Shown here: positions 2,785 through 63,850 of the stretch, one piece after another
Layout of the letters: each line of letters starts with the position of its first letter
How positions within the stretch are numbered: position 1 is the stretch's first letter
Source: Schmidtea nova
Lineage: Eukaryota
Direction of reading: 5' to 3'
NCBI GenBank assembly: GCA_044892505.1
Contig: CM097884.1
Span: 106,144,001 to 106,208,000, forward strand
DNA: 64,000 nt
Notes under the pieces: model-generated
Database searches by the model: none
What the model was told of the DNA's origin: nothing
Seen by the model: only the letters and a program-made list of their open reading frames with translations
Program-made: the position numbers and the translations under genes

Positions 2785-2843
<59 letters not shown>
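2785..2843. repeat. (TAGA)n microsatellite
   Basis: Direct reading. Confidence 0.95.
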
Positions 2844-5811: not shown

Positions 5812-5971
5812 GTAATGTTATTCACTTGTTATATTAAATAGTTAAGTTATGTTTTGGGCCTGTAAATGCGCAGAATGTTGCACTCTGAGGCAGTTGGGCT
5901 CCAAGCAAATAATCAAATTAAGTTCTTGAAAATATAGTTTAAAAATTAACTACAATAAATGTTATAATTAA

Positions 5972-12380: not shown

Positions 12381-13490
12381 AAAAGATTAAGTTATTAATA
12401 TGAATGCAATAAATTAAATAATTATAATAAAATTAAAATAAGTATTTAGGAATTGGTTAATAGAAATTAAATATAATGAATGATTATTAATAACTATAAA
12501 TCAAAACACATCTGCATTGAAAAAATATCAATTAGCTACTGCCTTCTTAATAGTAGAAAATTTGAGGATTGCCTAGAAGTTGGGTTGCAAGATGTTGAGA
12601 AGCTAAAAATAGGACAAATCAATAACAAAAACAATGATGAATAAAAAACAATTCAATATATTTGTAAATTAAAGATTTTTTTACACAGCAGTTTTTATTT
12701 ATTATGTCTAAACTTATATTTTTTATCATTCTTTGCACATTTTAATAATTCAATGTCATTTTGTATTATTTCAAAAAATTGTACGCAACTGCTTTTCGAA
12801 TTGATGCTAATGAGAAGTTCTGCTCTAATTAGTTCAGAAGAACACCTATTTCTTTCATCAGTTTTATTCATAATTGAAAATACACGTTCAATAAACTTTA
12901 TTAAACTGATTTTAACAAATGTTTATAGAAACTGATTTTATAAAAATAAATCAAATCAAATACATACATACAAACATGTTTAAAAATATTTTCAGAATTT
13001 TTTTTAATATTTTAATCTAGATGCCTTTGCTTTGAATTATAAAGAGAAAAAGATTTTTTTGTTAAATTTAAAAGGAAAACGGTACAAAGTAGAGTAAATA
13101 TTTCAAAGTAAGACAATTTCCCTTTCATGTAGTACGTAGGACAAATATCCAAATTGTAAGACTGTCCTACCGAAAGTAGGATGCGTGGCAACTTGACCTA
13201 GAAGTTCTCCAGTGATGACAGAGTTCTCTATTATCTGCAAATTGTTTTTAATGAGTTTGAATGATAATGTAAAAGTATTCATTAGATTTCTTAGCTGCTT
13301 AAATATCGATGCTCGAATTATATTATTATCATACTAATAATAATGCTTGCGTATATTAAAAAGATTTTTTGTGTAATAAACATTTTTTAACATTGATATA
13401 TTTGTTTTGATTGTCTTATTTATAGCTTTTTATAGGTATTGTTTTAGCTAGCGACTTTTATTACTCATATTTTAATATGTACTTTTATAG

Positions 13491-13682
13491 GACGCGAAAA
13501 ATGGCGTATGTGGGGTCACTTACAGAGTTACTGAACCTGGATTATACACATGCATCGTAAAATTTAACAGAAAGCATATAATGGGTTCTCCGTTTGCTAT
13601 AAATGTGAACCCAAAGCAAATAATGGGAAACAGGTCAAATGAAATTCCTACTAAATTGGAGCCGTATAGACAAATGTATCAG
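13491..13682 (+). CDS. fln: Filamin exon
   Basis: TTTTATAG acceptor, phase 0. DAKNGVCGVTYRVTEPGLYTCIVKFNRKHIMGSPFAINV completes the repeat begun at 5624-5811. The 3' boundary (46-nt intron 13683-13728) is inferred from frame. Confidence 0.85.
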
Positions 13683-13728
13683 GTTTTGAACGCAATGTTA
13701 TTAAGATTATATTTTACTACTGATTAAG

Positions 13729-14068
13729 ATTGGAAAGAAGTCAATTTTTAAGACAAAATTAAATAAAATAAATCTTGATCCCAAAATTGTGTGGTTTGCG
13801 TTGCTTCAATCTCCATCCGGTGATAAGAAAGAAGTTTATATCAACTACGATTACAAAAATGATATTATTTGGGCTGAATTTGTGCCCAATGAAATTGGCA
13901 TTCACTGGCTCTCATTTATGTACGAATCCGACAAGCACTTGCCCATAAATTTTGACACCTCTTTTCAAATAATTGTACAAGAAGTCGATAATTTTGACTT
14001 GACTAAGTTTCACAGAGAATTAGAATCGATTAAAGTTTTCGGTAAAGGTTTGGTAAAAGGTAAATCCG
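13729..14068 (+). CDS. fln: Filamin exon (diverged repeat)
   Basis: In frame after a 46-nt GT-AG intron: LQSPSGDKKEV...AEFVPNEIGIHWLSFMY...KVFGKGLVKGKS; GTAGGT donor at 14069. Confidence 0.75.
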
Positions 14069-14119
14069 GTAGGTTCCATTTAATTTCGTAAGTTATTATT
14101 ATTAACTTGCAAAAACAAG

Positions 14120-14364
14120 GAACTCCGAACTCCTTTCAAATTGAGATTGGAGAGTCGGTGAGTGGTGCTCTAAATGTTACCGTAGATGGACCGAGCAAGG
14201 TAGAGATCAAATGCAATGAAACGGAAAAAGGTTTCAGATTTTCATACATTCCTGCTATTCAGGGAGATTATTTGGTTACAATTAAATATGGTGGAGAATA
14301 TCAGATCAAGGGTTCCCCTTTTCAAGTTTGTATCAAATTGTTTTATAATCAGTTATGTTTTTAA
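14120..14364 (+). CDS. fln: Filamin exon (repeat-23-like); 3' end uncertain (read-through to stop or splice to an exon beyond)
   Basis: Follows a 51-nt intron (14069-14119): GTPNSFQIE...GALNVTVDGPSKVEIKC...FSYIPAIQGDYLVTIKYGGEYQIKGSPF. Confidence 0.85.
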
Positions 14365-23093: not shown

Positions 23094-23658
23094 AGTAGGA
23101 TTTGAGCCCATCAGATATAGGTCAAGACCCCCTCTAAAAAAATTTTTTATGTAGGTCAATTTAAGGATACTTTAAGGTCAAACATTTTGCTCAATGTCAC
23201 TTTAAGGTCAAAAAGTAGGCCAAGGTCGATTTAACATATTTTTAAGATGAATTTAAGGTCAAATTTATGGTTTATGGACAATAAAGTATGTCAAGGTTGT
23301 TTTAAGGACACTTTGAGCTCAAAAGGTAGGTCGATTTCAGGTCACGATGAGGACAAATCAAGTAGGTCAATAATATTTTTTTTAATTTTTCTGTCAAAAA
23401 TAAGTAGGTCAATAATAATAATAATTTTCGAAATTATTCTAAGTTATAATAATAAATTAAAAATTTAAGTAGGTCAATATAATTTTGTAAATTTTTCTAA
23501 GTCAGAATTAAGTAGCTCAAATATATTCAAAATCTGAATTAACTATTAAGTGACACAACACTTTGTGACTCACGTGGCATTGTAAGTGCAAGTTTAATAA
23601 AGCCAATGCAATCAAGCTGCAAGATTAACAAAGGTAAGTAAAGAATAATTTGATTAAT
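23094..23658 (+). repeat. Left terminal inverted repeat of Polinton copy 1 (runs into gap)
   Basis: Reverse complement of 48632-49439, near-identical over the inner ~120 bp; internal TAAGGTC/TAGGTCAA subrepeats. Confidence 0.85.
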
Positions 23659-24809: not shown

Positions 24810-25147
24810 TAGTCCCTATATAAAAACATTTAATATTTACACAGGTTCCTATATAAAACAAACAATAAAAAACTTTAAAAATAACAAATTTTTGTAAATA
24901 TGAATGTTTTATTTTNNNNNNNNNNNNNNNNNNNNNNNNNNNNNNNNNNNNNNNNNNNNNNNNNNNNNNNNNNNNNNNNNNNNNNNNNNNNNNNNNNNNN
25001 NNNNNNNNNNNNNNNNNNNNNNNNNNNNNNNNNNNNNNNNNNNNNNNNNNNNNNNNNNNNNNNNNNNNNNNNNNNNNNNNNNNNNNNNNNNNNNNNNNNN
25101 NNNNNNNNNNNNNNNNNNNNNNNNNNNNNNNNNNNNNNNNNNNNNNN

Positions 25148-28038
25148 ATCTCGCTCCATCGGTATTGGTTGAGGATCTGGCAATTCTTCGTGTGGATTAT
25201 TATCGCCATCAGTCCAGACATTGACTTCTAAATAATGCCCAAATACAAGACTTTCGTTCCTTCCAACCCAATGGCGCTTATCGTCGTTATTGCTAATAGC
25301 AATCTTATTATTTTTAATCGTGTAGAGCTGGTGATTTTTAGTCCCTATACGAGTTTGTGGTACAGTAAATATTCGATCATTAAGATAAAAATCAATATTA
25401 TATTGATGATTGATGTTGGTGCCTTTAAGTTGAACCCCCTTGGCTTTATTTAATTCAACATCTTCAAGAAGGCTTTGACATTTCGGGCGTAAGAAAACCC
25501 ATTCCTTATATTCGTGACTCTTACTTTCATTCTTAAATTTACCTATAACAGAGTCAAGATGTCGTGAATATAAGGGATGGTCGCGATCATAGTTACATGT
25601 ATCTAAAAGACAATCTGTAATCATAGCTGGTAAAAGTGTTGTAAGTTTACAGTTTTTAACCTCAAGAAAGAACGAGTCAGTGTCGCCAGCAACAATGCCT
25701 ATAGTACAATCAAAGAGATTCCTATATTTCTGCAATTCAAAATATTGCAGTTGATACATCCGCAGTTTAGATAGATCTAGTACCGTTTGACAGATATAAC
25801 TAGGTCTATCTAAACATATTAAATCTTTATTCAGATGTGCTGCAATCAGATCGTCATCAATTTTGATAGACTTTCTGAAAGACTGCTTTGAAGAATATAT
25901 AATCATTTTTTCAGATGAATTACATAATCTAAAATTCATCCATTTTTTCAGATTTTCGACGGATTTACCATAAAGCTGTTATTCAAAAGCTTAAAGTAAT
26001 TTTTATCAAGATCATTACTCGAGTTTGCTCTAAACTTAGTATTAGCATCGATATAATCCTTAAAGATTTATCTAATTGCCCTATGAATTTTCGAAATTTA
26101 GCCCCAAGAGAAACAAACATCTTAAGAAGTCTCCAATGTATTACATAGTTATACTTCGGATAATGCGTGAGCATTAACTTCTCAACTTTGGCAGGTACAT
26201 CTTTTTCAGAGCAACAGGGAAATCATCCAAAAAACATTGCATGTTTTCAGGAATATTAATGTCAACTTCCATAGTGTAACCATATGAAAGATCTTCAATA
26301 TCCGTCGACATACACTCGGTCAAAATATCTTCGAGATTATTATGCACCCACCTGAAATCACCGAAAGGAAGACTTCGGCTAAGAGCCTAACCATATAGAT
26401 TATTAATATCTATATACAAAAGTTCAGTGTTATCTGACGCTTTAACATAATGTGTTTTGACAAATGTCAATCCATCCCGTATTCCTCCTTCGTAGAAATT
26501 ATACATTTCCATATCCTGAAGAAGTTCTATGGGTTCCTTTAATGTCATGAGCGCTGAAGCCCATGACATACCGGGAATTCCATAAAAATTCAAAGGATCT
26601 AAGCCATTGTGTGCAATAGACTTAGCTCGGAATGGTTGGAAAATTCTACGAGGAGAAATACGTCTAATTTTAGATAGACTATCATGCAGTCAAGTAAATT
26701 TATACAGTTATTTTCGCACCAGATTTCTTGAGCTTTTATATATTGAGTCTCAGTTACTTCCTCCCAAATTGGTGGCAACTCAAAAGTATTTTCTAAAATC
26801 TCAAGACTGGTAGCAAAATTAAATGGAAGAATGCCCTTACAATTAATGTTAGAGCCACTGAAAACTGATGAGGTAAGAGGAGAAATGGACAGCGATTTTA
26901 CCGCTTTATCCAAAGAAGCTGTTACGAATTGATAAATATCAATAAACCTAACAGCAAGTTTATTAATATTAGCTATAAGAGAAATAAATTTCTCTGTAGT
27001 TTTTGGAATAATATCTAATTCCCATAAGGGGAAATCCGACAGACCATACTTCAAAATGTGATGTAGGTCATAACCTCTCAAATTATGAAAGATTACAGGC
27101 AAATGATGACGAATTCGCCTAGTATTATTGCAGATCTTACATGCTGTCCCAAGATATCTACCGGAAAAGTGATCAAAATCCCTAATTTGATTCCTAATCG
27201 GTTTCTTACAAAGAAAACAGTTCAAACAAGATCGAAAAGATTGTTCCTCAGAAAAAAATAATGTCTCAAATGGAACATTTCCATGAATGTCGTAATAAGA
27301 CAGGACAATTGTGGTGACAGTATTTTTCTCCACTTTCTTTAAAAATTGTATTACGCATTCAATACCTATGAATTCGTAATATGATTTTGAATTATTTAAA
27401 TTATTTAAAAGTAATAGTTCTGCTTATACCGGCAAATGTTTTTGGTGATAACGGTCATAAAGTCCCCATAAATTACAAACGGTGGGGTTACAGTTTTCGA
27501 ATAATCCTCAAATTCTAAATTTTTATTTTTAGGTAAACTATAAAGGGTAGTTCTCACTTGATTTTTCTTGCATAAATTATAATGTTTATCAAAGGTTTCC
27601 TGAATACGGAAACCATTTAAACATCTAGGACACCATAACGATTGAATTCTACTAGTAATTAGATTAATTTTATGACAGTTCATTAACCTTTGTAAATTAA
27701 TGACTGCTGTGTAATGGTAAACTCCCTCATTTTCCAATAATAAAAGATAAATGGGGTTAAAATTATTTAATTTTGTTCGATTAATTATTTCCAAGTGGGG
27801 AGGATGAGGAACATAGTCATCATCTTCCACATCAATATCATTATTAATAATTACTTTCGGGTTGTATGACAATACGTTAATTGCTAAGTCTGGGTTATTA
27901 TACTCAAATTTCGGGATGTTACATAATTGCATGGGACAGACCTCTATTGGGTCAAAAACTAAACCGTTTAAATAAGGAGTGTAACTTGAAGTTACACAAT
28001 GATTATTTGTGGTTGAGTCATGTTTAATATAGCCAAAA

Positions 28039-28072
<34 letters not shown>

Positions 28073-28650
28073 CTCGTCAGAATTTTCTACATTAATAATA
28101 GCCCTTTTATTTAACGGTTTAGGTGTTTTAAAATGTCCATGGCCAGATAATCAACTCATGGCGGAATACTTTTTCAAAATAAAATAGATTTCCCGTATTT
28201 TATTTACAATCCAGCCGCTACCCATCTGTGTGAAATTTTCAATTTTATTGTTTAGTTTCTTAATACCCCCCCATTAGAAAATTATCCGAAAAGATTTGGG
28301 CATTATTTGATAAAAATTCATTTTTAAACACCCCGTCTTTTTCAAACTGTATATTAAGCGCGAATTGAATTTTTACATTCCCCATTTCACGTATTTCATT
28401 ACGTAACCGTTCAGAAATTTTGTCTGTGACAGCAATTTGATTAATATTGTGAGACTCAGCGTTAAAAGTTAATGATCGTTGAGATCCTTTTAAATCTTTT
28501 TCGATTACAGGCTCGTCATTTATATTAATTGAACTCCCTATTTGATTATTTATAACAATTTCATCGTCGTCGCTTAAAATAATTATCTTAGGTTTATTTT
28601 TCTTGGGTTCAATAAATTTAATGGTATCAGCAGGTCGTTTTTTGTTATTT
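25148..28650 (-). pseudogene. Protein-primed family B DNA polymerase (pPolB) of Polinton copy 1, frameshifted
   Basis: Motifs in order: MGSGW, AIINVENSDE, FHNLRGYD (exonuclease II), YIDINNLYG (motif A), GDTDSF (motif C), LRPK, KAKGV. A (TA)n expansion lies at 28043-28070; the 5' limit is approximate. Confidence 0.92.
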
Positions 28651-29144
28651 TTAAATTTTATTATTTTGATTAATTATTTTTACATTTGTTGTATGTAGTA
28701 AGTTATTTATTAATATATTATTATTATTATTTAAAAGAGATGATGACTTAGTTAAGTCTATGGTAACAGATTTTTTTGAATAAGAGATGTTCGAAGTCTC
28801 AGGATTAAGTTTAAAAATAAATTTTTTAGATTTAAAAAATTGTGAAAGATGAACTTGATGTTCTGTATAAAAATCAGAAAAAGGTATGGGTTTGGAAGTC
28901 TCAGATTTAAGGCTAATAAGGATAATAAATTGCCATAAGTTTATGACATCGAATGCCGTGTTTGCTTGATGAGTTGCAATAATTATGATACAAAGAGCCT
29001 GAATATATATAATTCAAAAATATATTTAGAATAATTTAAAATAATAATATAAAAAATTGATATATTTGAAGAATCATTATAGTAACCTATTTACAATAAT
29101 AAGCCAACAAATATTTAAAATAATTTATTATTAATATAATTGAT

Positions 29145-42539: not shown

Positions 42540-42968
42540 AAAAAATTCAAAAATTGCGCCAAAAAATTAAAATATTTACTGTATTTAAACAAAATCTAAA
42601 ACAGCGATAACATTCAAAAATTGCGCCAAAAAATTTGTATTAATTTACTTTATTTAAACAAAACGGCGGTAAAATTTAAAAATTGCGCCAAAAAATTTAA
42701 AACAAAAAATGACCTTGACCTTTGACCCCAATTACACAATGACCTTGACTTCGAAACGACCTTGATCTTTGACCCCGATTGTGTAATTATGAGATCATAA
42801 CTCGTGTGCTGCGTATTAGGCCTAGAAATATTATGTAATAACGTATGTATTATATGAAGCCCGCGAATTGCATAATGATTGTCTAATCATGTGTGTTACC
42901 AAAAGTCCTAGCGATTATGTAATATATACACAGGGGGTAGTGGTTCAGACTCCTCACTACATCCTACT
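42540..42968 (-). mobile_element. Orphan Polinton-type terminus inserted in the MCP gene of copy 1
   Basis: MCP homology stops at 42969 and the minus strand then reads AGTAGGATGTAGTGAGGAGTCTGAACCAC; GACCTTGACC repeats and three TTGCGCCAAAAAATT copies lie internally. Confidence 0.55.
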
Positions 42969-48631: not shown

Positions 48632-49439
48632 TACTTACCTTTGTTAATCTTGCAGCTTGATTGCATTGGCTTTATTAAACTTGCACTTACAATGCCATGT
48701 GAGTCACAAAGTGTTGTGTCACTTAATAGTTAATTTAGAATTTGAATATATTTGATCGAATATATTCTGACATATAAAATTATTATATTTGACCTACTTA
48801 TTTCGGACATAGAAAAATTATATTTGACCTACTTTGTTGACCTTAAAGTATCCTTAATTCTGACTTAGAACAATTTTGAAAATTATTATTAACCTACTTA
48901 TTTCTGAATTAGAATAATTTCAAAAATTGTTATTGACCTATTTAATTCTGACAAGGAAAAAATTTTTAATTTATTTATATTATAACTTAGAATAATTTCG
49001 AAAATTATTATTAACCTACTTAATTTAGACTTAGAAAAATTTTAAAAATTATATTTGACTTACTTATTTCTGACATAGAAAAATTTTGAAAACTATTTTA
49101 CCTACTTATTTTAACTTTAAATTCACCTTTAAAATATTTGACCTAATTATTTTGTCCTCATCGTGACCTGAAATCAACCTATCTTTTGAGCTCAAAGTGT
49201 CCTTAAAACAACCTTGACATACTTTATTGTCCTTAAAATGTCCTTAACCCATAAATTTGACCTTAAATTCATCATAAAATGACCTTAAATCGACCTTGAC
49301 CTACTTTTTTAACCTTGGAAGTGTCCTTAAAGTGACCTTAAACGAAAACATTGGCCTTAAAGTGTCCTTAAATTGTCCTACATATAAATATATTTTTCTA
49401 CGGGGTTCTTGACCTATATCTGAAGGGCTTACATTCTAC
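48632..49439 (-). repeat. Right terminal inverted repeat of Polinton copy 1
   Basis: Reverse complement of 23094-23658, with extra copies of the GACCTACTTATT subrepeat. Confidence 0.85.
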
Positions 49440-51576: not shown

Positions 51577-53931
51577 TAAGTGTGGGGTCGAAGACTTTAC
51601 ATGCTGATACAACTCTTGGATTTGCTGAAGATATGATAGAAATTAGCGAAGTTTTGTCTGAGAAAGAATTTGTCTGAGAAAGATATAAAAAAGAATAACG
51701 TTCCAGATATTAGAAAATATAGAAAAAGACATGGACAAGTCTATTAAAGTGGAAGATAAAATTAAAGTAATGAAAATTATTAGTAATATAAAAAATATCT
51801 TTAGCAAATATAAAATAAATATTGGAGTATCGGACGTAATTAACCATGAAATTGACACAGGATTAGCAAAACCAATAAATTTCAAACCTAGGAATGTACC
51901 TAGAGGTTTAGAAGAAAGTGTCAATAACATGGTAGTGGAAGCAGGCTTTATTAGAGAGAGCAACTGGCCATGAATTTTTCTAATAGTAGTGGTAAAAAAG
52001 AATGTGAAATAAGAATGTGTGTCGATTATCGAGCATTAAACGCTAAAACATCAAGGTCAATATACGCTATTCCATCATCAAATGATTTATTCGACACCCT
52101 TGGAGAAGCAAAGTATTTTTCAACTTTAGATTTATCTAGTTGATACTATCAGGTGAAGGTCGATGAAAAAGACGTACAAAAAATAGCGTTTAGTACAAAG
52201 TATGAGCAGTATGGATTTATAAGAATGCCTTCCCGATTGTGTGGAGTCCAGCAACTTTTCAAAAGTTGATGAATGTTGTACTAAGAAACGTTGGGCTGGT
52301 AGTACTGAAATAAACTATTTTTGTTTTAATGCGTCGAAAATTAAATACTCAGATAAAGAGGCGAATTCAAAACTCGTGATAACACATAAGAGTATTAGGC
52401 AGAAAAAAAGCACAAAAGTATATAGGATAGTAAAACACAAATAAGTGCAAATAGTAGGCATATGAGCCGCATTTCATAAGTCGGTCGAGGTAGGGTTAAA
52501 ACGATAATAAAAATGCAGCTCAAAAGAGAGCACACAATTTGAGTGCAGGTCAAATGTACATACGAAAGACCGTACGAGAATTTAATGTGGAAGATCATTG
52601 CTCATATATTAAATACAAAAAACGTGATAGTAGATAAAATTTGTATTAAAATAAAGAGAATAGTTTATTAAAAATTATAGAAGAAATTCCCATTAAAATA
52701 TCGTTAAAATTACAGAAATAGGGACAAAAATAGAAAGAAATGGTCATTTATTATATTAACGCGAGCAAATTGGCCCCATACTGGACGCGCGCATAATTTA
52801 GTAGAATTAAAAATAAATATTTACAAACTAAACAAAGTAAATTATAAAACTAAATTTACTGAAAAACAAATAAATAATTGATTTATTAAAATTAATAATT
52901 TAAATATTAAAAGTAATCTATAAATTAAATTATAAATATTTCTGTTTAATGAACAGAATGCGGAGGTGTAACACAAATAAATAGTTTATGTAGGCCTTCG
53001 AAAATCATTATTTTAACCGAATTTTCACCATAAATTTTGGAAAAACTAGTTTTGCTTACAGATAGTGATCTTCAAAGTTTTCTCGCTCACCAGCCCACGT
53101 CAGTATTGTTATTTATAAGTCTTGTGGAATATCTGATTACGGAATCAGCAGGTATGTTTACGTTTAATATTTTCATGTGTAAAGGAAATTGATTATAAAT
53201 ATTGAAGTAAAATCATTTATTTTTGCTACACTATCTCAAATGATACCCCGATTAAACTGATTTAGGAAGGTCTCTGTCGACTCACCGGTCATAAGTTCCT
53301 TATGTGTTGGAGAAACCGAACCGAAGAGTTGTAATTTTCTTTAGAGCAGCGGAGATTATAAATGAAGGAAATTCAAATCAAGGCTTTAAAATACATTTAA
53401 TACAATTAAGAAATTCAAAAGGTAAATTATGACAAAGTAAGAATATCTGATGAGATTAAAATTGGCGATTTGGTGTTAGTTCGTAGAGAAAATAATCAAA
53501 GTCCCAATTCGAAATGTTATGGACCGTTTTCTATTGAAGCAGTCATTAATAAATGGACTTATCTACTATGAAGTAAAGATGGAAGAATTCTTCAGAAAAA
53601 CTACAACCAAATAAAAAAGGTGCCAAATAATTCAAGGGGTGTTGTATCACCGGAAACAAGTGTGCAAACAAGACCACAAGAAGATATCCAATAATTTCCA
53701 GAAATAATGTAAACCCTGTTTACCGTTGATCCTTACGAGGGGATGTTATATATTAATAATTTATAAAATGAAATTGTTTTATTATTAATACAGTTTTTGG
53801 ATCTTGATTTAAAATTGTTATAATATAAATTATTATTATATAAATACAACAGAATGTCACCATGAGAGAAATGTTTATTAAAACAAATTGAACCGAAGAC
53901 ATACAAAAGTATAAGAATGGGATTCATCAGA
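49440..53931 (+). mobile_element. Decayed Ty3/gypsy retrotransposon (gag, protease, RT, integrase remnants, start of 3' LTR)
   Basis: CFKCKKLGHIAICC knuckle (~49920); FFDTG protease (~50345); MCVDYRALN and FSTLDLSS RT motifs (52015-52140); GPF motif (~53520); polypurine GAGGGGA then TGT at 53744. Confidence 0.85.
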
Positions 53932-53976
53932 AGTAGGTAGATGTGTGGAGTCAAACACAAAGAAATGAGTCATAAT

Positions 53977-54041
53977 GCGTGGGCGGAAAATTTTAAACAA
54001 AGAACTTTTTTTTCCGAACCCCCCCCCCCCCGGGGGGGGTC

Positions 54042-54072
<31 letters not shown>

Positions 54073-54905
54073 CGCGCCAAAAATTTTTGAATTTTTTTTT
54101 TGAAAAATTTTTTAACACAAAATTTTTTTTTAACACAAATTTTTTTTTTAACACAAATTTTTTTTAACACAAATTTTTTCAACACAAAATTTTTTAACAC
54201 AAAATTTTTTAACACAAAATTTTTTAACATAAAATTTTTTAACATAAAATTTTTTAACACAAATTTTTTCAACACAAATTTTTTTCAACACAAAATTTTT
54301 TAACACAAAATTTTTTAACATAAAAATTTTAACACAAATTTTTTCAACACAAAATTTTTTAACACAAAATTTTTTAACACAAAATTTTTTAACACAAAAT
54401 TTTTTAACATAAAATTTTTTAACATAAAATTTTTTAACACAAATTTTTTCAACACAAATTTTTTTCAACACAAAAGTTTTTAACACAAAATTTTTTAACA
54501 TAAAATTTTTAACACAAATTTTTTCAACACAAAATTTTTTAACACAAAATTTTTTAACACAAATTTTTTTTTTTTTCACAAATTTTTTTTTTCACAAATT
54601 TTTTTTTTCATACAAATTTTTTTTTTTAAATTTTTTTTTTTTAAACAAAGAACTTTTTTATGCGTGGGCGTAAAAAATTTAAACTAAGAACTTTTTTATG
54701 CGTGGGCGTAAAAAATTTAAACAGAGAACTTTTTAATGCGTGGGCGTAAAAATTTTTAAACAAAGAACTTTTTCGAAACCCCCCCCTCGGGGGGGGCTAA
54801 ATTTTTTTTTTTTTTTTTTTTTTCAAAAATTATTTTTTTTTTGCGCCAAAAAATTTTAAAATTTTTAAAATTTTTTTTTTTTTTCAATTTTTTTTTCCCG
54901 CCAAA
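53977..54905 (+). promoter_or_regulatory. Cluster of EGR (4x GCGTGGGCG), E2F (TTTCGCGCCAAA, TTTCCCGCCAAA, TTTTGCGCCAAA) consensus sites, preceded by AP-1 TGAGTCA at 53966
   Basis: Motifs read directly at 53977, 54662, 54700, 54738 (EGR) and 54070, 54839, 54894 (E2F); function not demonstrated. Confidence 0.55.
54110..54600. repeat. Tandem 15/16-nt array (AACACAAAATTTTTT)n in the terminal region of copy 2
   Basis: Roughly 30 imperfect units read directly. Confidence 0.92.
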
Positions 54906-55143
54906 TTTATAATTGTAAATTAATTTTTTTTTTTTTTTACACAAATTTTTTTTTTACATAAATAATTTTAACAGAAATATTAGTCATCGAAAGGTTTGCA
55001 ACACGCGTGCAACTTAAACAAAGACAATGCAATACACGTGCAAGACTTTGCAACACGCGTGCAACTTAAACAAAGACAATGCAATACACGTGCAAGACTT
55101 TGCAATACACGTGCAACATGAACAAAGACATTGAAAATTAAAT

Positions 55144-55725
55144 TTATTTATAAATATATCGTTGTGTACGTGTACAAAATTTAGTTTCAAAATTATTTAC
55201 ATCTGGATTATTACTCGGAATATTATTCATAGGAATATTATTCATTGTAATATTATTCATCGGAATACTAGTATTTGTCGGAATATTATTCTTTGGAATA
55301 TTTGAAATCTTCTCCAGCCGTATGGATGCCGATAACATCATTATAATTATTAATATAAATAAACTTATATAATGTAATACAATGGCTGTTTTTTCATTTT
55401 CAACTGTTTGATTTTGGTATCTGACTTCATATTCTTTTTTAACAAAAGTTTGATTGATACATTTTAATCGTTCAACTATTTTCATCATTATTTTGGCAAT
55501 CATTTTTTCAATGTCATTATTAATCACATTATTTTTGGAAGGACATTGATTACATTGTAATTTTATTTGACTGCATTCAAGGTTTGAGTAAAGACATATA
55601 TCATTATAACTCGCACAAGTACTATCGTGTTTTCGAAACGGATGGGATGATTGACAATCTTCCAAAGCTTGTTCTCCTTCAGTATTGTGAACACATAATA
55701 ACAAAATAACTATATTTAATTTCAT
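55144..55725 (-). CDS. Predicted type I membrane glycoprotein with Cys-rich ectodomain, 193 aa
   Basis: Hydrophobic N-terminal signal, six-Cys cluster, two NQT sequons, TM segment AIVLHYISLFILIIIMMLSASI, tail with IPxNN repeats. Confidence 0.75.
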   Translation of the reverse strand: MKLNIVILLLCVHNTEGEQALEDCQSSHPFRKHDSTCASYNDICLYSNLECSQIKLQCNQCPSKNNVINNDIEKMIAKIMMKIVERLKCINQTFVKKEYEVRYQNQTVENEKTAIVLHYISLFILIIIMMLSASIRLEKISNIPKNNIPTNTSIPMNNITMNNIPMNNIPSNNPDVNNFETKFCTRTQRYIYK

Positions 55726-55792
55726 TTTAAAAACAAAAAACTAATATCAAAACTAAAATTGTTCATACTAAAAAATATTTATTAAAAAACAA

Positions 55793-56209
55793 TTATGCGT
55801 ATCTTGCATTGTCAACTCTCCAAATCGGAGTAACAACATCTTTTTTATCAATCTTGTACCCTTGAATAATAACTGTAACGAACCAGTGTTCTTGATCCAT
55901 GAAATCAATAGTCTGAAAAGCATCATGGAACCGAGTTTTTCTGTTATTGATGTACATGGTTTCTTTACATGTCAAATTAACATTGATCTTTGAAAATAAT
56001 CGATTTAATGCAATAATATCTGCTTTGGAAATAATTACAGCAAGACTGTCATATAAAGATTTTGTCAACTTTACCGGAAATGATAATCGATACGGTATTT
56101 CATTAACCAAAAAATAAAGTCTGCTGTCGTAGTACATCTGGACTGGTTTTACCTCAGTCTGATATATTTTTTCTTCGCTTATATCTAAATTTTCTTTTCT
56201 TGAATTCAT
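55793..56209 (-). CDS. Conserved accessory protein of unknown function (possible OB-fold SSB), 138 aa
   Basis: Open frame with a clear homolog in copy 1; conserved upstream TATAAATACAAAG. Confidence 0.75.
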   Translation of the reverse strand: MNSRKENLDISEEKIYQTEVKPVQMYYDSRLYFLVNEIPYRLSFPVKLTKSLYDSLAVIISKADIIALNRLFSKINVNLTCKETMYINNRKTRFHDAFQTIDFMDQEHWFVTVIIQGYKIDKKDVVTPIWRVDNARYA

Positions 56210-56698
56210 TTTATAAATTGTGACAATATTTTATAAAATGTCTTTGTATTTATACTAATGACTGCATGTCTTTGTCCAATCATATTCATGCATTTATCTT
56301 GCACACACTATGCACATGTATTGCATGTCTTTGTTATGTTTTTGTTGTATGTATGTTTACATGTTTTATTTAATTAGATATATATATATATATTTTTTTT
56401 TTAAACTTTCATTTTAAATTATTTATATAAACTCTATTTATTTACTTTATATAAATATATAACTTGATTAATAAAAATATAAATGTTTAATAAAAAAGTT
56501 ACTTAAACTAAAAAACAAAATATTACAATTAATGTAAAAATAACTTAAAACTAAAACTATCATAAAAATAACTTAAATAAAAAACTAAAACTGAAATGAA
56601 AAACGTTTATTTAACTAAAATAACAAAACTAAAATGACATTAACTATAAAACTAAAACTAAAACTGATTAAATTAAATTAAACACAAAAAATTGATCA

Positions 56699-57308
56699 TT
56701 ATTGTTGTTGTTCTTCATCGTTTTCTCCTTGTTGTTGTTCTTGTTGTTGTTCTTCTTCTTCATTATCAACCTTCCTGTGACAATCAGTACAATCAGGTGA
56801 CTCTGGCGATTCGTCACAATCTTTATTATCTGATGATTGTTCCATAGGACATTCGATATTTGATTGTTCGTCAATCGGCTCTGGAGTTGAGTTTGGCCAG
56901 TTTTGTTTTTCAATCTCTTCCTCCTCTTCCTCATTGTCCTCCTCAACTTTTTCCAGCTGTTGAGTATCAAATTGCTTTAGAGTATTTCTTAAGATCCAAA
57001 TATGGAATTTGCGGATCCGCTCGACGCAATTACCACATTGATAGGCACATACGATGTGCTCGGCCATATGGGGCAAGTCATTTGATAGATTTGTCAGATG
57101 GTCCAGTACGATCTGGTTCACATCTATTCCGGTCAACACCATGATTTTATATGGAAACAGCTCCGGTGCTGTATAGGTGAGTGTCGGCATGAGGTTCGGA
57201 AATATTTCTGACAATTTCGTGTAGACAACTGACATAAGCTTTTCTAAAAAAAAAAAATAATATTAATATTGAAAATCAATAAGTAGTGTCCTTACCACTT
57301 TTCAACAT
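56699..57308 (-). CDS. Acidic/Gln-rich Cys-containing accessory protein; probable short first exon 57296-57308 and 52-nt intron
   Basis: Main ORF 56699-57235; GTAAG donor at 57295 and TAG acceptor at 57244 join MLKS in frame; homolog in copy 1. Confidence 0.75.
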
Positions 57309-57507
57309 TGTTTGTTCTAGACACATTTTTTATATGGATATAAACTATGTGAGATTGTCTATAGTTTATATATGAAAGAAACACACATGACTTAGAAAAC
57401 GATACACAATGAACCAATCAGAGTGAAGCATGCACAACATGTCTTTATTCTCGAAATACACACAGAACCAATCAGAATCGTGCATTTCTAATGCATCGAT
57501 ATTGCAG

Positions 57508-57975
57508 TCATGAGTCACATGTTAGTATGAAATCAACAAAGGCTTTATCTTCTATAACTGATTTTATATCGTTAATAATATCATCAACTATAGTTGAATA
57601 ATCTTTGTTTTTTAATCCTAATATGACTAATTTCCCACTTGCAAATATATTTACACACATGGGATTATATTTGGTATACCTTAAAGCTGGAAACAATTCT
57701 GGCTCGTAAACACACGGTATCAATCTCGATAATTCATTCAAATTACAAATGAATCCTAAATCCGCAGTTACAGTTATCGATTGAATTTTTAAATCGTAAA
57801 ACTCAACTTGTTCGTCACTAATAAATTCCCTACATCCCATTATTCTATATCTTCCTGTTTTAAAGTATATTATTGGATATTTCCCACTTCGATCTACAAT
57901 TTGCTGGGGTTTTCCATTTGGAAATTTCATGTGTGATACATCTGTCTTACCTTTGTAATTAATGTTTCTAATCAT
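57508..57975 (-). CDS. TBP-like (TATA-binding protein fold) protein, Polinton copy 2, 155 aa
   Basis: IRNIN...IIYFKTGRYRIMG (repeat 1) and KIQSITVTADLGF...YEPELFPALRY...VNIFASGKLVILG (repeat 2). Confidence 0.88.
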   Translation of the reverse strand: MIRNINYKGKTDVSHMKFPNGKPQQIVDRSGKYPIIYFKTGRYRIMGCREFISDEQVEFYDLKIQSITVTADLGFICNLNELSRLIPCVYEPELFPALRYTKYNPMCVNIFASGKLVILGLKNKDYSTIVDDIINDIKSVIEDKAFVDFILTCDS

Positions 57976-58068: not shown

Positions 58069-58692
58069 ATGGAATTAAGAAATGATGCAGTGTTTCAAAT
58101 TGTTGGTCCGAGCGGGAGTGGAAAAACTTTATTTGTTTGTAAATTATTGCAATCGAAATTATTCAAGTCGAAATTTAATAATATTTATTGGCATAGGGGT
58201 GCTGACGACGAAAATGGAATGACACAAGATCAGTTTTGTAAAATAAAAATGACAATCATAAAAGGTTTCGATAAAAACTGGTCATCTAGATTAAAACAAG
58301 GTGATGTGATTATCATTGACGACTTGTATCAAGAAGCAAATAAAGAAAAGGATTTTAATAATTTATTTACGAAAATCAGTAGACATAAAAGTGTTACTGT
58401 TATTTTTATAACTCAGAATTTATTTCATCAGGGCGGTAGTCATCGAACTCGTAATTTAAATGTTCAATATCTTGTTGTTTTTAAAAATCCTAGAGATGCA
58501 ACAGTTATTGATTTTCTGGCAAGACAAGCTTATCCTTCAAATCGTAACTTTTTGATTGAAGCCTTTCAGGATGCTACAAAATCTCCTCATGGATATATTT
58601 TCTTGGATTTTACTCAACAATGCAGTGATGATTTAAGGGTTAGAACTGATATTTTTAACAAGGAAGGAGCCATGGTTTATAAACAAAGTTAA
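58069..58692 (+). CDS. A32-like (FtsK/HerA superfamily) DNA packaging ATPase, 207 aa
   Basis: Walker A GPSGSGKT, Walker B IIIDD, SRH, ITQNLF, VFKNPRD and PHGYIFLD motifs. Confidence 0.93.
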   Translation: MELRNDAVFQIVGPSGSGKTLFVCKLLQSKLFKSKFNNIYWHRGADDENGMTQDQFCKIKMTIIKGFDKNWSSRLKQGDVIIIDDLYQEANKEKDFNNLFTKISRHKSVTVIFITQNLFHQGGSHRTRNLNVQYLVVFKNPRDATVIDFLARQAYPSNRNFLIEAFQDATKSPHGYIFLDFTQQCSDDLRVRTDIFNKEGAMVYKQS

Positions 58693-58712
58693 ATTGATTT
58701 ACAGTAATAATA

Positions 58713-59258
58713 ATGTTAATGAAATCTCGAGTAAAGTTTGAACGATTGATAAAAGCTCGAAAATCAATGAAAATAGGTAAGAAAGCAGGTCGAAGAAAGA
58801 AATCGACAAAGAAATCCGTTTCAAAATCAGTTTCAAAAACAAGTTATACACCATCGAAAAAACTAATTATGGATAATTTTCCCAAACAAAATCAAATTCC
58901 AATTAATTTGAAATCAAATGCTAAACAAGTACATCATCGGAGTTTTCCGTTTTTTAATGCATTGCTTAAAGCCCCATCCGCTAGAAGAATGGGTATTCTT
59001 CAATCGTTTCCTAATTACGTTATCGATGATTTACTCACTATTTTAATTAAAGTAGTACGAGGTAAAATGCATCTCAGTCCATCTAATCGACGTGTTTTGA
59101 ACAAGCATAAGAAACCATTGTTGTCGCTAGTAAAAACAAAAAATCGAAAACTTATGCGAAAAATAATATATAAACAACAAGGAGGATTTATTGCCGCATT
59201 ATTACCACTAGCTTTATCATTATTGGGAGGTGCTGGTTTATTGGGACAAAGGTCATAA
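58713..59258 (+). CDS. Basic Polinton virion/core-like protein, 181 aa
   Basis: Lys/Arg-rich N-terminus; C-terminal KQQGGFIAALLPLALSLLGG typical of the Polinton gene between ATPase and integrase. Confidence 0.8.
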   Translation: MLMKSRVKFERLIKARKSMKIGKKAGRRKKSTKKSVSKSVSKTSYTPSKKLIMDNFPKQNQIPINLKSNAKQVHHRSFPFFNALLKAPSARRMGILQSFPNYVIDDLLTILIKVVRGKMHLSPSNRRVLNKHKKPLLSLVKTKNRKLMRKIIYKQQGGFIAALLPLALSLLGGAGLLGQRS

Positions 59259-59313
59259 ACAATGGGTCAATCATTACCTAATTTAAATTTAAACTTTAAA
59301 TCTTCTTGTTGTA

Positions 59314-60358
59314 ATGGAGAAGATCTGGACGAACCCAAAAGACGACGCCGGTTTCGGTGGAGTCGAAAAGCTAAGGAAAAAAGCACAGAAGTCGAAACAA
59401 CAGACACAAAGTTGGTTATCGGGGCAACTTGCATACAGTCTAAACAAACCGATGTTGAAACGGTTTCCAACTCGAGCATATAAAACATATAGAATCAATG
59501 ATTTGTGGCAAATGGATTTGATGGAAATGATTCCGTATTCCGCTATTAACAAGGGGTACAAGTATATTTTAACATGTATTGATGTTTACAGTAGATTTGC
59601 TCGAGCAATTGGAGTCAAATCTAAATCTGCTAATGACATGGCAATTGCTATCAAGACAATGATGAAAAAGGATCGGCCAACTAATTTACAAACTGATTTG
59701 GGTAAATTTTAATTTAAATTTATAAATTTAATATTTTTTAGGAAAGGAATTTTACTACAGTAAAGTCAAGGAAGTTATCAAGGGAATAAATCATTATTCG
59801 GTATTCTCACAATTCAAAGCCGCTCATGTCGAGAGATTTAATCGAACTTTGCGGGATCGATTGAAAAAATACTTTGTTTTTAAAGGCAATAAAACCTGGA
59901 TTAATGTCTTACCTCAATTGATTCATAGTTATAATCATAGTGCTCATCGGGGTATAAATGGCAGGAAACCAGCAGAAGTAGTTGATACTGAAAATATTGT
60001 GAGTGAAGTGAAAGTAAAGAAACCAAAATATAAAGTTGATGATCATGTTCGAATTAGCAAGATTAGTGCATCGCCATTCATTAAAAATTTTGATAATAAT
60101 TGGAGTGATGAGGTATATCAAATATCGAAAGTCAACACAGTGCAGAATCCTGTCATGTATACTATTCGTGACTCTGATAACAATATAATCAGCGGCAAAT
60201 TCTACGAACAAGAATTACAAGTTATTCCTCCACCGACAATATTTAGAATTCAAAAAATCCTGAAATCTAAAATGGTGGGTAAGGATAAACAATACTATGT
60301 AAAGTGGCACGGATATAAAGAACCATCATGGATATCATCAAAAAACCTAGTAAAATGA
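59314..60358 (+). CDS. Retroviral-like (rve) integrase with C-terminal chromodomain; spliced (exons 59314-59701, 59742-60358), 334 aa
   Basis: WQMDL, LQTDLG|KEF and VERFNRTL catalytic D-D-E; YYVKWHGY chromodomain; removing a 40-nt GT-AG intron restores the frame. Confidence 0.92.
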
Positions 60359-61380
60359 ATTTTTATATGATTCTACCTAGCAACAGTTGTCCAGATATAC
60401 ATCCAGATAATACTTCCAGTAATTTCATGGTCAATCTCCAAAATCCAATGTATTTGGACGGGATTTGGGAAGTCGCTCTCTTAGACTTTACATTTGTGTA
60501 TAATCCATTTCCATTTTACAGTAAATCAGAAATTCGGTACAAAAAGAAAACTTTACATACAAAATATAAAAATTTGATAATCAACAATCAATTTTGTGAA
60601 GTTGATATATCTAATCCTGCCGATGATATTGCTCAAATCAGTAGCGATAGACAATCTATTTATTTTACCTGTGATAATTTTCCCTTCACTATAACTTTTG
60701 ATACTTTGGCAATGGCAAAAAGAATGGGATTAACGAAACAGAGTATTGTAAGTCCTACAGATACATACAAGATACCGTTACCACATTATGGTATAGATGG
60801 TCCATTACTGGAAAAAATTAGAATAAAGATGGAGTACAAGGCTGATTCTGCATTTATACATACATTTACCGATAATTTATACATATCGAAACTGGATGAA
60901 ATGCAATCATATTTTATTCTAAATTGTGCAAGTATTTTTAAATCTCTGGAATTGGTAGATGATAGTTACTTCAAATTCAGTTTGAATGTAGATGTTAGCG
61001 AAATAACTTTTGACAATAACCTTGTAAAAACATTGGGATTAGCGAAAGCTACATATGCTCAAGACGGAAGCTTCACTGTTGGAATATATAAACCAAAAAT
61101 AATTAAACTTCATCAGCAAATGTTCATTTACAGTAATATAGTCAATCCTATAATTGTCGGTGATTCATTAGTTCCCATGTTGAAATCTGTATGGATTGAA
61201 AAATATGAACAGGATGAGGTTGTTCAAATACAAGTTGAAAATCCAATGTATTTATCTGTTTCAACATCTTGTATAAACAATATAGAAATAAATATCCGAG
61301 ATGATAGAGGTAATTTAATAAACTTTCCAAAAAATTCAAAAACTCATTTGACTCTACATTTTCGAAAACATCATGAGTAA
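60355..61380 (+). CDS. Minor capsid protein (penton, single jelly roll)
   Basis: MNFYMILPSNS...NFMVNLQNPMYLDGIWEVAL...YSNIV..IIVGD...INIRDDRG...LHFR signature; ATG overlaps the integrase stop (ATGA). Confidence 0.9.
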   Translation: MNFYMILPSNSCPDIHPDNTSSNFMVNLQNPMYLDGIWEVALLDFTFVYNPFPFYSKSEIRYKKKTLHTKYKNLIINNQFCEVDISNPADDIAQISSDRQSIYFTCDNFPFTITFDTLAMAKRMGLTKQSIVSPTDTYKIPLPHYGIDGPLLEKIRIKMEYKADSAFIHTFTDNLYISKLDEMQSYFILNCASIFKSLELVDDSYFKFSLNVDVSEITFDNNLVKTLGLAKATYAQDGSFTVGIYKPKIIKLHQQMFIYSNIVNPIIVGDSLVPMLKSVWIEKYEQDEVVQIQVENPMYLSVSTSCINNIEINIRDDRGNLINFPKNSKTHLTLHFRKHHE

Positions 61381-61738
61381 TCCCGATATAATTTCATTGT
61401 ACAGTAATAGTCAAACTGGTGGCGAATTACCGTATTTTATAGGTAAACAGTATGGATCAGGTTGGTTGAAAACTATTGGAAGATTTGCACTTCCACTACT
61501 TAAGCGACTGGGCAGTTTTGGAATGAAAACTGCTAAAGACGTTATAATGAAAGATCAGAAAATTTTGCCTACATTGAAAACGAATGCTATGGAGGCTGTA
61601 TCCAAGGCGATACCGTCAATTTCAAATATGTTTTCCAAAAACGAACCGCAACCTGAACCGGTAGGACCAAGACGTAAAAAGATTAGAAAACGTATAAACA
61701 AACGAATGAAAGGTCATGGAACTATATTTGAAGAATGA
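61373..61738 (+). CDS. Small virion/core-like precursor protein, 121 aa
   Basis: QTGGELPYFIGKQYGSGWLKTIGRFALPLLK, amphipathic segment and basic C-terminus. Confidence 0.82.
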   Translation: MSNPDIISLYSNSQTGGELPYFIGKQYGSGWLKTIGRFALPLLKRLGSFGMKTAKDVIMKDQKILPTLKTNAMEAVSKAIPSISNMFSKNEPQPEPVGPRRKKIRKRINKRMKGHGTIFEE

Positions 61739-62955
61739 TTTGCGGTAAATCTGAATTATGTCTTTTTGATCGACCATCACCTCAAGCAGTTATTGAATAT
61801 GGGGTGTTTGAAGATGTTTTTCCAATGAATTCTATTACAGATAGTAGAAATGATGTTGAATTTTACATTAATGGATCGGCAACCGAATATTTGGATTTGA
61901 ACGATACTTTATTATCCGTTACTGTCAAGGTTCTAGATAAAGATAAAAATAAATTAGTTGATGCGAGTGACGTAGTGCCTAATAATTACCTATTTCATAC
62001 TCTTTTCAAAGATGCGATTCTTGGATTTAATAATATAAAAATCGAGGGTGGAAACAATACATATGCACACAAGGCCATAATCGAAACTGTTTTAAATTAT
62101 ACTAGCGATACAAAAGAAACATGTCTTACTCCAATGGGATATGGTTCCGCTGACGATCGGAAAAAATGGATCAAGGGATCTAAACTTTTCAACATGTGTT
62201 CATCATTACAACTCGATTTTATGGATCAACCAAAATACTTACTTCCCGGAGTTAATGTACATATTAGATTGAAGAGATCTGAATCTTCATTATCATTGAA
62301 ATCTGCAGCTGGGAAACCTATAATCCAAATAGTTGATGCAAAATTAATGGTAAGAAGAGTTCGATGTGAATCTTCAGTTTTGGCCGGTCATCAAATTGGT
62401 TTAAATAGTAAACATGCAATTTATCCATTAAAATCTAAAGAAATCGTATCGTTTGCAATCGGTAAAGGGGCATCGTCATTTTACAAGGAGCAAATATTTG
62501 GAGATAGAAGAATGCCTAATTTCATTCTTGTGGCTTTTCAAACTGAAAATCAATATAATGGATCATATGCTGAATCTGCATCTACATTCAAACATTTCAA
62601 TGTGACTTCATTATCGTTATCGAAAAATACCGATTTTCGAGAAACTTATACTCAAGATTTTGAAAATGATAATTTTAGTGCCACATATATGCAAAGTCTT
62701 GTCCGAAATCTAGGATATTTGGATAAAAACTTGAATTGTGGTATAAGTCTGGATGAATTTAAAAGTAAATATCCATTCTTTACATTTGTGCTCGCTCCCG
62801 ATTTCGATTTGAATCAAAGCCAAATCCCTCAAAACGGGAATTTACGACTCGATATAAAGTTTGCAAAACCCATTGATGAACCGGTTCATGTAATTATATA
62901 TGGAGTTTTTGAAAATGAAGTACAAATTACTGCCAATCGAACAATACTAGTTTGA
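61735..62955 (+). CDS. Major capsid protein (double jelly roll, hexon-like), 406 aa
   Basis: KSELCLF..P..Q..IE, VEFYI, YLDLNDT, FMDQPKYLLPGV and GNLRLDIKFAKP signatures of Polinton MCPs. Confidence 0.92.
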   Translation: MICGKSELCLFDRPSPQAVIEYGVFEDVFPMNSITDSRNDVEFYINGSATEYLDLNDTLLSVTVKVLDKDKNKLVDASDVVPNNYLFHTLFKDAILGFNNIKIEGGNNTYAHKAIIETVLNYTSDTKETCLTPMGYGSADDRKKWIKGSKLFNMCSSLQLDFMDQPKYLLPGVNVHIRLKRSESSLSLKSAAGKPIIQIVDAKLMVRRVRCESSVLAGHQIGLNSKHAIYPLKSKEIVSFAIGKGASSFYKEQIFGDRRMPNFILVAFQTENQYNGSYAESASTFKHFNVTSLSLSKNTDFRETYTQDFENDNFSATYMQSLVRNLGYLDKNLNCGISLDEFKSKYPFFTFVLAPDFDLNQSQIPQNGNLRLDIKFAKPIDEPVHVIIYGVFENEVQITANRTILV

Positions 62956-63004
62956 GGTCTGCAAAAAAAAAACATTATTGGTTTAAACAGTATAAATGAC
63001 CAAA

Positions 63005-63036
<32 letters not shown>

Positions 63037-63040
63037 CATC

Positions 63041-63417
63041 ATGGAGTAAGATTTTTATTTGATTAGTTATTTATTTTAATTAGTTCTATTCAGGTATTAC
63101 ATCAAGGTAAAAAACTATTGGGAAATCAATTTATTGGAGTATTTCCTCTGGATAAAATACCTTATTTGAAAATGAATCAAGCCATCATTGTAAATACTCA
63201 GACATCTACGTTGGGCGGTGAACATTGGATTGCAGTTTACGTGAAACCAGATCGAATACATGTATTTGATCCATTTGGATATTATTATCCGAATTTACTT
63301 GTTCGAAAACTACAAACTATTGGTAAACCTATTGTGTATAATAGAATTCGATATCAGCATCCTTTAACAATCACTTGTGGTGAACATTGCCTTGCATGGT
63401 TGAAATCAATGTTATAA
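63041..63417 (+). CDS. Adenain-like cysteine protease; spliced (exons 63041-63045, 63084-63417)
   Basis: FIGVFPLD, IVNT, GEHWIA (His), FDPFG (Asp) and Q....TCGEHC (Cys); a 38-nt intron supplies the only nearby ATG. Confidence 0.9.
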
Positions 63418-63448
63418 ACAATTTATTTTAATATATTTTATTTGAAAA

Positions 63449-63850
63449 ATGTCTTGTTATTTTATCGATTTTTATGGTTATAATGAAATGGGTGGAACAA
63501 CAATTAAGGAATTATGTATAATGAATGTTAATAATATTTTCACACCCCAGTATTATATATACAGTGATTTATCTTTCTGGCCTGATCGTATAGAATCGTT
63601 TGAAGGACAAGATTATTTTTGCCCAAAATGTATAATGGATGATATCACAGATAAAGGAGCTATTTTCTATGTTACCGATAATGAAAAGATGTATGTTTTG
63701 AAGAAGTATTTCCCGAAATTAAGATTAATCAAGTATACTTATAAAGAAGTTGAATATGTTCCTGAAAACATTTCATGTCCCTATAAAGACCATTGTATGT
63801 GTGCCTATAAAGGGTGCTTGTCTGCTGTTGTAGATTATTTAAAGCAATAA
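63449..63850 (+). CDS. DEDD/Maelstrom-like accessory protein, 133 aa
   Basis: IDFYG...IKELCIM and CPYKDHCMCA; homolog in copy 1. Confidence 0.78.
   Translation: MSCYFIDFYGYNEMGGTTIKELCIMNVNNIFTPQYYIYSDLSFWPDRIESFEGQDYFCPKCIMDDITDKGAIFYVTDNEKMYVLKKYFPKLRLIKYTYKEVEYVPENISCPYKDHCMCAYKGCLSAVVDYLKQ

Follow-up and report, generated by a model that had tools for sequence, protein, structure and literature searches.

A cluster of GC-rich words resembling binding sites for EGR, E2F and AP-1 factors lies in an AT-rich tract of the window (the whole 64-kb stretch of DNA that was analysed), and raises the question of what this tract is and to which state of the host cell, if any, such words might couple it. 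The original prediction placed the words in a viral terminus and proposed that the provirus ties its induction to injury and to S phase in stem cells, much as adenovirus terminal repeats and early promoters use host factor sites.

We show herein that the tract forms the left terminal repeat region of a Maverick/Polinton family that is present in high copy number and carries a TBP-like gene; the far end of the element lies beyond the window. The element, hereafter copy A, ends at 53932, a position on which contigs placed on 53300-54100 agree in all four runs (4/4). At the boundary 53931/53932 the contigs pass into unrelated flanks (41+76 contigs in run X1, 18+30 in X2, 17+39 in X3 and 1+1 in X5), and the agreement between contigs in the outer flanks is just 0.40-0.44. 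The same end recurs at more than 100 insertion sites in a single run, and the summed depth across 53932 in X1 rises from 56 to more than 600,000, a figure that is no measure of copy number. Runs X1 to X3 come from one study, and X1 is possibly the source sample. The first letters of the end, AGTAGG, match five of the six bases of (AGT)2, the terminal motif of Mavericks in the available text of PMC8097293, and two further Maverick ends within the window start in the same way. The sequence to the left of 53932 reads as the decayed 3' part of an apparent Gypsy-type element, for which no family match was obtained. Thus, with an element end located by contigs, the claim of a viral terminus held.

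Copy A leaves the window at 64000, and its genes within the window are arranged as follows.

55144 to 57975, minus strand: left-arm accessory genes of 193, 138 and 178 aa and a 155-aa TBP-like protein, all directed toward the terminus
58069 to 63850, plus strand: core module, consisting of a packaging ATPase, a 181-aa basic ORF, an rve integrase and a 350-aa probable minor capsid protein, continued by a 121-aa ORF, a 406-aa probable major capsid protein, an adenain-type protease and a 133-aa ORF

Judged by its predicted integrase, ATPase and protease and by its end, copy A is a Maverick; the polymerase and paired terminal inverted repeats (TIRs) were seen for a sister copy, B, only. The integrase scored above the cut-off (PF00665, E 2.6e-8), and the packaging ATPase and protease matched PF04665 (E 1.3e-6) and PF00770 (E 8.1e-6), respectively. 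The capsid ORFs were named from their place in the gene order and from a weak Pfam match: the candidate major capsid protein, of the double jelly-roll type, matched PF21738 below the cut-off (E 0.0048), had 151 unnamed homologues and no solved-structure match by sequence, and its position between the penton-like ORF and the protease is conserved in related loci. The integrase is spread over two frames, split at the same point in A and B, and the split is probably a short GT-AG intron. At the split point in A (59700-59741), GT...AG surround an AT-rich stretch of 40 nt. The TBP-like protein (PF00352, E 8e-14) is 76% identical between A and B, and its gene was present in eight of the 23 related loci of at least 3.5 kb. 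These 23, which were mapped, belong to 70 related loci from a metagenome scan, and seven ends of four loci were inspected. None of the 70 gave a comparable terminus and none of the seven ends was clearly terminal; the EGR word was absent from all 23 mapped loci and an E2F word followed at 4 nt by a CHR (see below) from all 70, which, in loci with no clear termini, is no gauge of conservation. Scans of viral contigs found nothing.

The terminal tract itself contains the following features.

53932 to 53964, plus strand: element end of copy A, starting AGTAG, placed by contig ends; presumed core origin and integrase recognition end, the origin role being taken from PMC8097293
53965 to 53973, no strand assigned: AP-1-type word ATGAGTCAT, nt 34-42 from the end, present only in some copies
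53975 to 53986, plus strand: outer EGR-class site, nt 44-55 from the end, overlapping a CDE-type GGGCGG, with TTTAAA 5 nt downstream
54015 to 54039, no strand assigned: outer copy of a C-run/G-run palindrome, hairpin-capable (fold of -11.5 kcal/mol for 54005-54050, computed without a shuffle control)
54070 to 54091, plus strand: palindromic E2F site, 4-nt gap and CHR TTTGAA, preceded by T27
54104 to 54570, plus strand: 15-bp T-tract satellite of about 31 copies, with a higher-order period of 180 bp
54640 to 54773, plus strand: 38-bp unit in 3.5 tandem copies, each with a AACAAAGAAC-like word and an EGR site (54661, 54699, 54737)
54734 to 54977, plus strand: inner duplicate of the outer block, with EGR site, C-run/G-run (54774-54796), T-tract and E2F word (54839-54850)
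54894 to 54911, plus strand: second E2F word TTTCCCGC, then, 4 nt later, TTTATA, one mismatch from a CHR

A letter search of the window recovered all eight words on which the prediction was built. The EGR word TGCGTGGGCG occurs at 53976, 54661, 54699 and 54737 and nowhere else in the 64 kb; the E2F words are TTTCGCGCCAAA (54070-54081), TTTTGCGCCAAA (54839-54850) and TTTCCCGCCAAA (54894-54905); and the AP-1-type word is that listed at 53965-53973. The EGR words were described as exact sites, and indeed all four match the 12-mer EGR3 consensus NTGCGTGGGCGK (PMC5958205, in excerpt). GC-rich words of this kind were also described as very improbable in such a tract, which is true of the long EGR and E2F words taken singly; the AP-1 7-mer is a common word in the window. 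A single EGR 9-mer appeared in 0.2% of 2000 dinucleotide shuffles of 53932-54960, and a Markov model trained on the window gave an expectation of 0.0001-0.0002 copies per kb for the EGR 10-mer and for each E2F 12-mer. The AP-1 7-mer has eight sites in the window versus 5.5 expected from shuffles (P 0.24) or 6.9 from the Markov model, and 0.7 copies per window are expected of the AP-1 9-mer.

The number of sites is a different matter. The 38-bp period is that of the 3.5-copy tandem array, with 92% matches, and a second copy of the block 53973-54188 lies at 54734-54977 (72%, E 3e-32). Because of this array and this duplication, the four EGR sites go back to one origin and the three E2F sites to two. 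The EGR and E2F counts of the terminus are therefore not independent, and once the repeats are allowed for, what is left is a single origin for EGR, two for E2F and one AP-1 word. The possibility that the EGR word is merely a CDE was rejected, as three of its four copies end in GGGCGT and have a gap of 6-7 nt to TTTAAA. The hairpin-capable C-run/G-run palindromes sit in both duplicates and resemble ZIC/GLIS-type sites; in one related locus, L006, a G-run likewise forms the end, upstream of the polymerase. A 52-bp repeat (54995-55130) with CACGTG and CACGCGTG palindromes and a ACAAAGAC word is situated between the terminus and the first gene's 3' end.

The 1029-bp tract is 20% GC, versus 29.7% for the whole window, and its 16 CpGs fall in the EGR words (eight), the E2F words (four) and the C/G-run palindromes (four); no CpG of the tract lies outside these. 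T-runs of at least 6 on the inward strand of 53932-54960 outnumber A-runs by 43 to 3, or by 15 to 3 with the satellite set aside, and a bias of 7:0 was found on the inward strand of a second Maverick-type end in the window, terminus C. The four ORFs nearest terminus A are all antisense and directed at it, and no ATG-started plus-strand ORF of at least 70 aa occurs between 54900 and 58069, a span in which short spliced exons could escape such a search. Since the nearest four genes point toward it, the terminus is not an early promoter of the adenovirus type (E1A- or E4-like), and no sense-strand gene was found directly inward of the terminal sites.

Two further Maverick sequences in the window allow the terminus to be compared with those of relatives.

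23094 to 49439, minus strand: decayed sister copy B, with TIRs of its own (23094-23640 and 48632-49439) and a protein-primed polymerase
42546 to 42968, minus strand: terminus C (AGTAGG at 42968), inserted in copy B, with three units of TTTGGCGC, 4 nt and a CHR, and with AGGTCA repeats

Copy B is 77-84% identical to A over three long gene segments. Its TIRs are 76-77% alike, its target-site duplication matches at five of six positions (flanks GATTGT/GATTGA), and its polymerase matches PF03175 (pPolB, E 7.6e-10). The TIRs of B contain 9 and 11 [AG]GGTCA words versus 0.6 and 0.9 expected, and one AP-1 word each; their sequenced part, which runs into an assembly gap on both sides, has neither an EGR nor an E2F word. 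They are tandem arrays of AGGTCA-containing units, unrelated to terminus A. Terminus C has three E2F words, five [AG]GGTCA words and no EGR word. It interrupts the capsid gene of B, part of which is missing at the junction, and the other end of its element was not found in the window. Each of the termini is made of short words that recur and look like host factor sites, AGGTCA presumably being a nuclear-receptor half-site. Because copies with 77-84% identical genes have unrelated termini, the termini change far faster than the genes: in the three termini compared, the terminal cassette turns over much faster than the genes, and related elements of the same genome carry different words. The genes at both ends of copy B are directed toward the TIRs, with the polymerase directed toward the other TIR, and because of this orientation the TIRs need not be promoters. 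The polymerase of B (24875-28673) has the same direction as the capsid gene; it is opposite in all seven related loci that hold both (L003, L006, L008, L010, L021, L055 and L058), and B may have undergone either a lineage-specific inversion or a later rearrangement.

In mammals, a DREAM/MuvB element comprises an E2F word, in either orientation, which is followed 4 nt downstream by a CHR or a hexamer resembling one; TTTGAA, TTCGAA and TTTAAA are the common CHRs (PMC5716687, available passages). The E2F word TTSSCGC is matched by three of three sites in terminus A and three of three in terminus C, and a perfect CHR hexamer lies 4 nt inward at five of the six E2F 8-mer sites of the two termini. 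In terminus C, a perfect CHR begins after a gap of exactly 4 nt at each of the three E2F words. In terminus A, a CHR lies 4 nt from the reversed 8-mer at two of the three sites (TTTAAA in the case of the inner word, 54839-54850), and a hexamer with one mismatch takes its place at the third; if the E2F word is taken as the 7-mer of PMC5716687, the distance in A becomes 5 nt. None of the three other E2F 8-mers in the window has a CHR at 4 nt, the background frequency of CHRs being 0.011-0.018 per position. The gap has kept its length in the two duplicates of A while its A/T make-up differs, and the pair of E2F word and CHR occurs independently in terminus C, with an E2F orientation opposite to that in A. 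This pattern, noticed post hoc, has two independent origins, and CHR-like words are common in A/T runs; the pairing in termini A and C is therefore suggestive of a DREAM/MuvB layout, and not proof of one.

Variation among copies bears on the other two words. In at least 65 contigs of X1, 27 of X2 and 30 of X3, the segment with the AP-1 word is missing and the EGR word is kept: these contigs leave the window sequence after 53967 and run straight into the EGR word, with 10 bases missing, which brings the EGR word to nt 35-44 from the end. Because many copies thus keep the EGR word and lack the AP-1 segment, EGR appears to be the stable word and AP-1 a trait of a subfamily. An altered, decayed outer EGR word was found in at least six contigs of X1 and at least six of X2, and another variant in at least nine, eight and nine contigs of X1, X2 and X3, respectively; the loose-end consensuses behind these variants agree at just 0.54-0.73 over 30 letters. 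The AP-1 version is shared by some copies nonetheless, as one X5 contig (record 22) has the AP-1 word at another insertion site, and the summed depth remains high past this word. The comparison reaches as far as the T-run, contigs being cut within 54003-54100 and 54029-54100, with its E2F site, being uncovered. The expectation that EGR and AP-1 words would both be conserved across copies was accordingly not borne out for AP-1.

What the terminus presents is a locally duplicated module behind a short core end, made up of an EGR-class site, a C/G palindrome, a T-tract and an E2F word with a CHR. We favour, tentatively and with slightly less than even confidence, the reading that this cassette of host-factor-like words gates the copy A family to cycling cells, with EGR as a signal input. 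DREAM/MuvB and E2F/DP would act on the E2F/CHR pairs to silence the element in resting cells and derepress it in cycling ones; the T-tracts may keep the terminus nucleosome-poor; EGR would add a signal-dependent input; and AP-1 would be an optional add-on of one subfamily. Because the neighbouring genes point toward it, the cassette would act not as a gene-proximal promoter but over several kb as an enhancer of internal promoters, or on the excised linear genome. T-tracts feature in planarian stem-cell and constitutive promoters, and no enriched factor motif was found in the stem-cell promoters (both from PMC10558129, in the part available). With their CHR partners, the E2F words strengthen the S-phase or proliferation half of the proposed coupling. 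The wound half is not supported, as AP-1 is dispensable among copies, the four EGR sites are one amplified unit, the close sister B has no EGR or E2F word in the sequenced part of its TIRs, and the genes next to the terminus are directed at it. The proliferation reading is thus better supported by the sequence than the wound reading.

Other readings of the same words have points in their favour. The provirus may have a wound-response enhancer proper, in which EGR and AP-1 activate it after injury and E2F ties it to S phase of stem cells; we consider this rather improbable. The exact EGR sites were amplified to four copies, the AP-1 word adjoins the outer EGR word and is present at other insertion sites, and egr is induced by amputation in acoels (PMC9849279). 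During head regeneration in Hydra, the timing of some Mavericks groups with that of Jun/Fos and the timing of others with that of EGR, but the same clusters also include many other transposon classes (PMC13465017, in excerpt). Moreover, the AP-1 word is missing from the many contigs counted above and is not enriched in the window, planarian EGR motifs are accessible in uninjured epidermis and brain (PMC10558129 and PMC12660999, in the passages available), and planarian Polintons are de-silenced in normal differentiation (PMC8532177, in part). The words might instead be auxiliary elements of the origin or of excision, through which host factors would help to load the protein-primed polymerase or the integrase, with transcription being secondary. 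The AP-1 and outer EGR words lie at nt 34-55, where adenovirus ITRs have Oct-1 (nt 40-48) and Sp1/NFI sites (PMC2397415, available text); the EGR word is in the same region in copies that lack the 10-bp segment, and the end genes of copy B point toward TIRs that need not be promoters. However, three EGR sites and two E2F words are 730-970 nt away from the end, a distance beyond the reach of an adenovirus-type origin; the spacing to the end differs by 10 bp among copies, and E2F words paired with CHRs are an arrangement of transcriptional control. We regard a role in the origin or in excision as unlikely.

Transposases typically bind tandem sites in terminal repeats, and the words could be sites for a protein of the element itself, for example the TBP-like protein on the T-tract array or an accessory protein on the GC words, their likeness to host consensuses being incidental. 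The element does have a conserved TBP-like protein and several ORFs with no assignment. Yet A and B, whose proteins are close, as the identity of the TBP-like proteins shows, have none of these words in common at their termini; the left-arm and core ORFs of A yielded no C2H2 or E2F-like domain; and a match to the full EGR 12-mer together with E2F/CHR spacing would be a double coincidence. We give this reading little credence, and as little to neutral turnover of repeats, in which a few chance GC words would have been copied by slippage in a low-complexity terminus, with no function. The reduction of the counts to a few origins would fit the latter, as would the wholly different termini of close relatives and the decayed outer EGR word of some copies, and motif matching was uncorrected over all known factor families. 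The expectation for each of the three long words nonetheless remains far below one, the CpGs are confined to the three word types, and the E2F word with its CHR recurs in the unrelated terminus C. A bolder extension of the gating by cell cycle is that swappable terminal cassettes, in the manner of retroviral U3 enhancers, adapt co-resident families whose genes are nearly identical to different cell states, with A waking in injured, cycling stem cells, and that hundreds of dispersed ends seed injury- or cell-cycle-responsive enhancers. The word sets would then be EGR and E2F/CHR in A, E2F/CHR and AGGTCA repeats in C, and AGGTCA arrays and AP-1 in B. We consider it unlikely that this extension holds as a whole.

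Much of the element is familiar from the animal Mavericks/Polintons, or adintoviruses (PMC8097293, PMC10748475 and PMC8502044, each in part), with which it shares the rve integrase, A32-type ATPase, adenain, probable capsid genes and an AG-starting end, as well as, in sister B, TIRs and a 6-bp target-site duplication. It differs in starting with AGTAGG rather than the (AGT)2-type AGTAGT, and in having a TBP-like gene, although TBP-like genes have been noted in related viruses (PMC8502044, in part). In the available portions of these three sources, Maverick ends are described by 6-bp end motifs, with no internal factor sites. General features of Mavericks are given in PMC10748475 and PMC6431247, and their expansion in Dugesia genomes in bioRxiv 10.64898/2025.12.11.693146, as far as the accessible text of each goes. 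The adenovirus ITR, with its core origin and Oct-1, Sp1 and NFI sites, likewise has host-factor-like words just inside the end of a protein-primed linear genome; it is about 160 bp long, however, whereas the terminus here measures about 1 kb, was built up by tandem duplication, has words for other factors and is followed by no sense-strand early gene (PMC2397415, available text). The E2F/CLE and CDE/CHR elements bound by DREAM/MuvB resemble the terminus in that TTTGAA or TTTAAA stands at a distance of 4 nt from an E2F word of either orientation, but they were defined in mammalian core promoters within 200 bp of a start site (PMC5716687, available passages), and the 4-nt gap in terminus A holds only for the 8-mer E2F word. 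The C. elegans Polinton_CE_TIR, a species-specific TIR of 744 bp, shows a similar turnover, diverging next to genes that can still be recognised. Putative factor sites were noted in the repeats of which it is part; the passages available describe no E2F/CHR or EGR cassette, and the TIR was studied as a cause of host gene rearrangement (PMC11414722).

A search of the literature, with coverage of few subscription papers or Repbase reports, turned up no work on factor sites in the TIRs of Mavericks. In retroviral LTR U3 enhancers and polyomavirus control regions, fast turnover of host factor sites by tandem duplication sets cell tropism. Those regions lie upstream of the genes they drive, whereas the cassette of A faces gene 3' ends. 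What appears to be new here is the pairing of E2F words in Maverick termini with CHRs at DREAM/MuvB spacing, for which the evidence is suggestive. Maverick particles have not been seen so far (PMC8097293, in part), and what triggers the activation of animal Mavericks is an open question, for which terminus A offers testable triggers, namely cell-cycle entry and immediate-early signalling. The exact EGR sites and E2F/CHR pairs also predict which knock-downs should alter the expression of the family. Should termini be exchanged between families more quickly than the genes evolve, it is they that would determine the tropism of these viruses, and a family in high copy number would then supply the host with ready-made regulatory sites.

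Several minor observations concern the genes and their surroundings. The 193-aa ORF (55144-55725, minus strand) has a signal-like N-terminus, a cysteine-rich stretch, a hydrophobic segment and a repetitive tail; it looks like a small receptor-type membrane protein, with what we take to be a likeness to TNF receptors. It had no match in Pfam or PDB, and no counterpart was seen in copy B. The 138-aa ORF had no atlas match. That it is an E1A-like protein was rejected: its LxCxE Rb-binding motif, present in A and B, is absent from the homologues in L003 and L021. Upstream of the accessory genes are CATG pairs 5 nt apart and CATGTCT words (56260-56335, 57429-57445 and 57509-57521), with no strict p53 half-site, and two CCAAT boxes precede the 178-aa ORF. 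In the TBP-like gene (57508-57975, minus strand), the second repeat is well kept, with EPELFP invariant or nearly so in eight aligned copies, and the first is degenerate; among related loci the gene is found on either side of the core module. In L058, a distant relative, the left end (1-300) has TGAGTCA, CACGTG and ACAAAGA repeated upstream of the first gene. Exons of the filamin gene of the host occupy 35-14364 of the window, with mariner and hAT insertions nearby; one of them is 100% identical to one database protein, and the preceding exon is clearly diverged.
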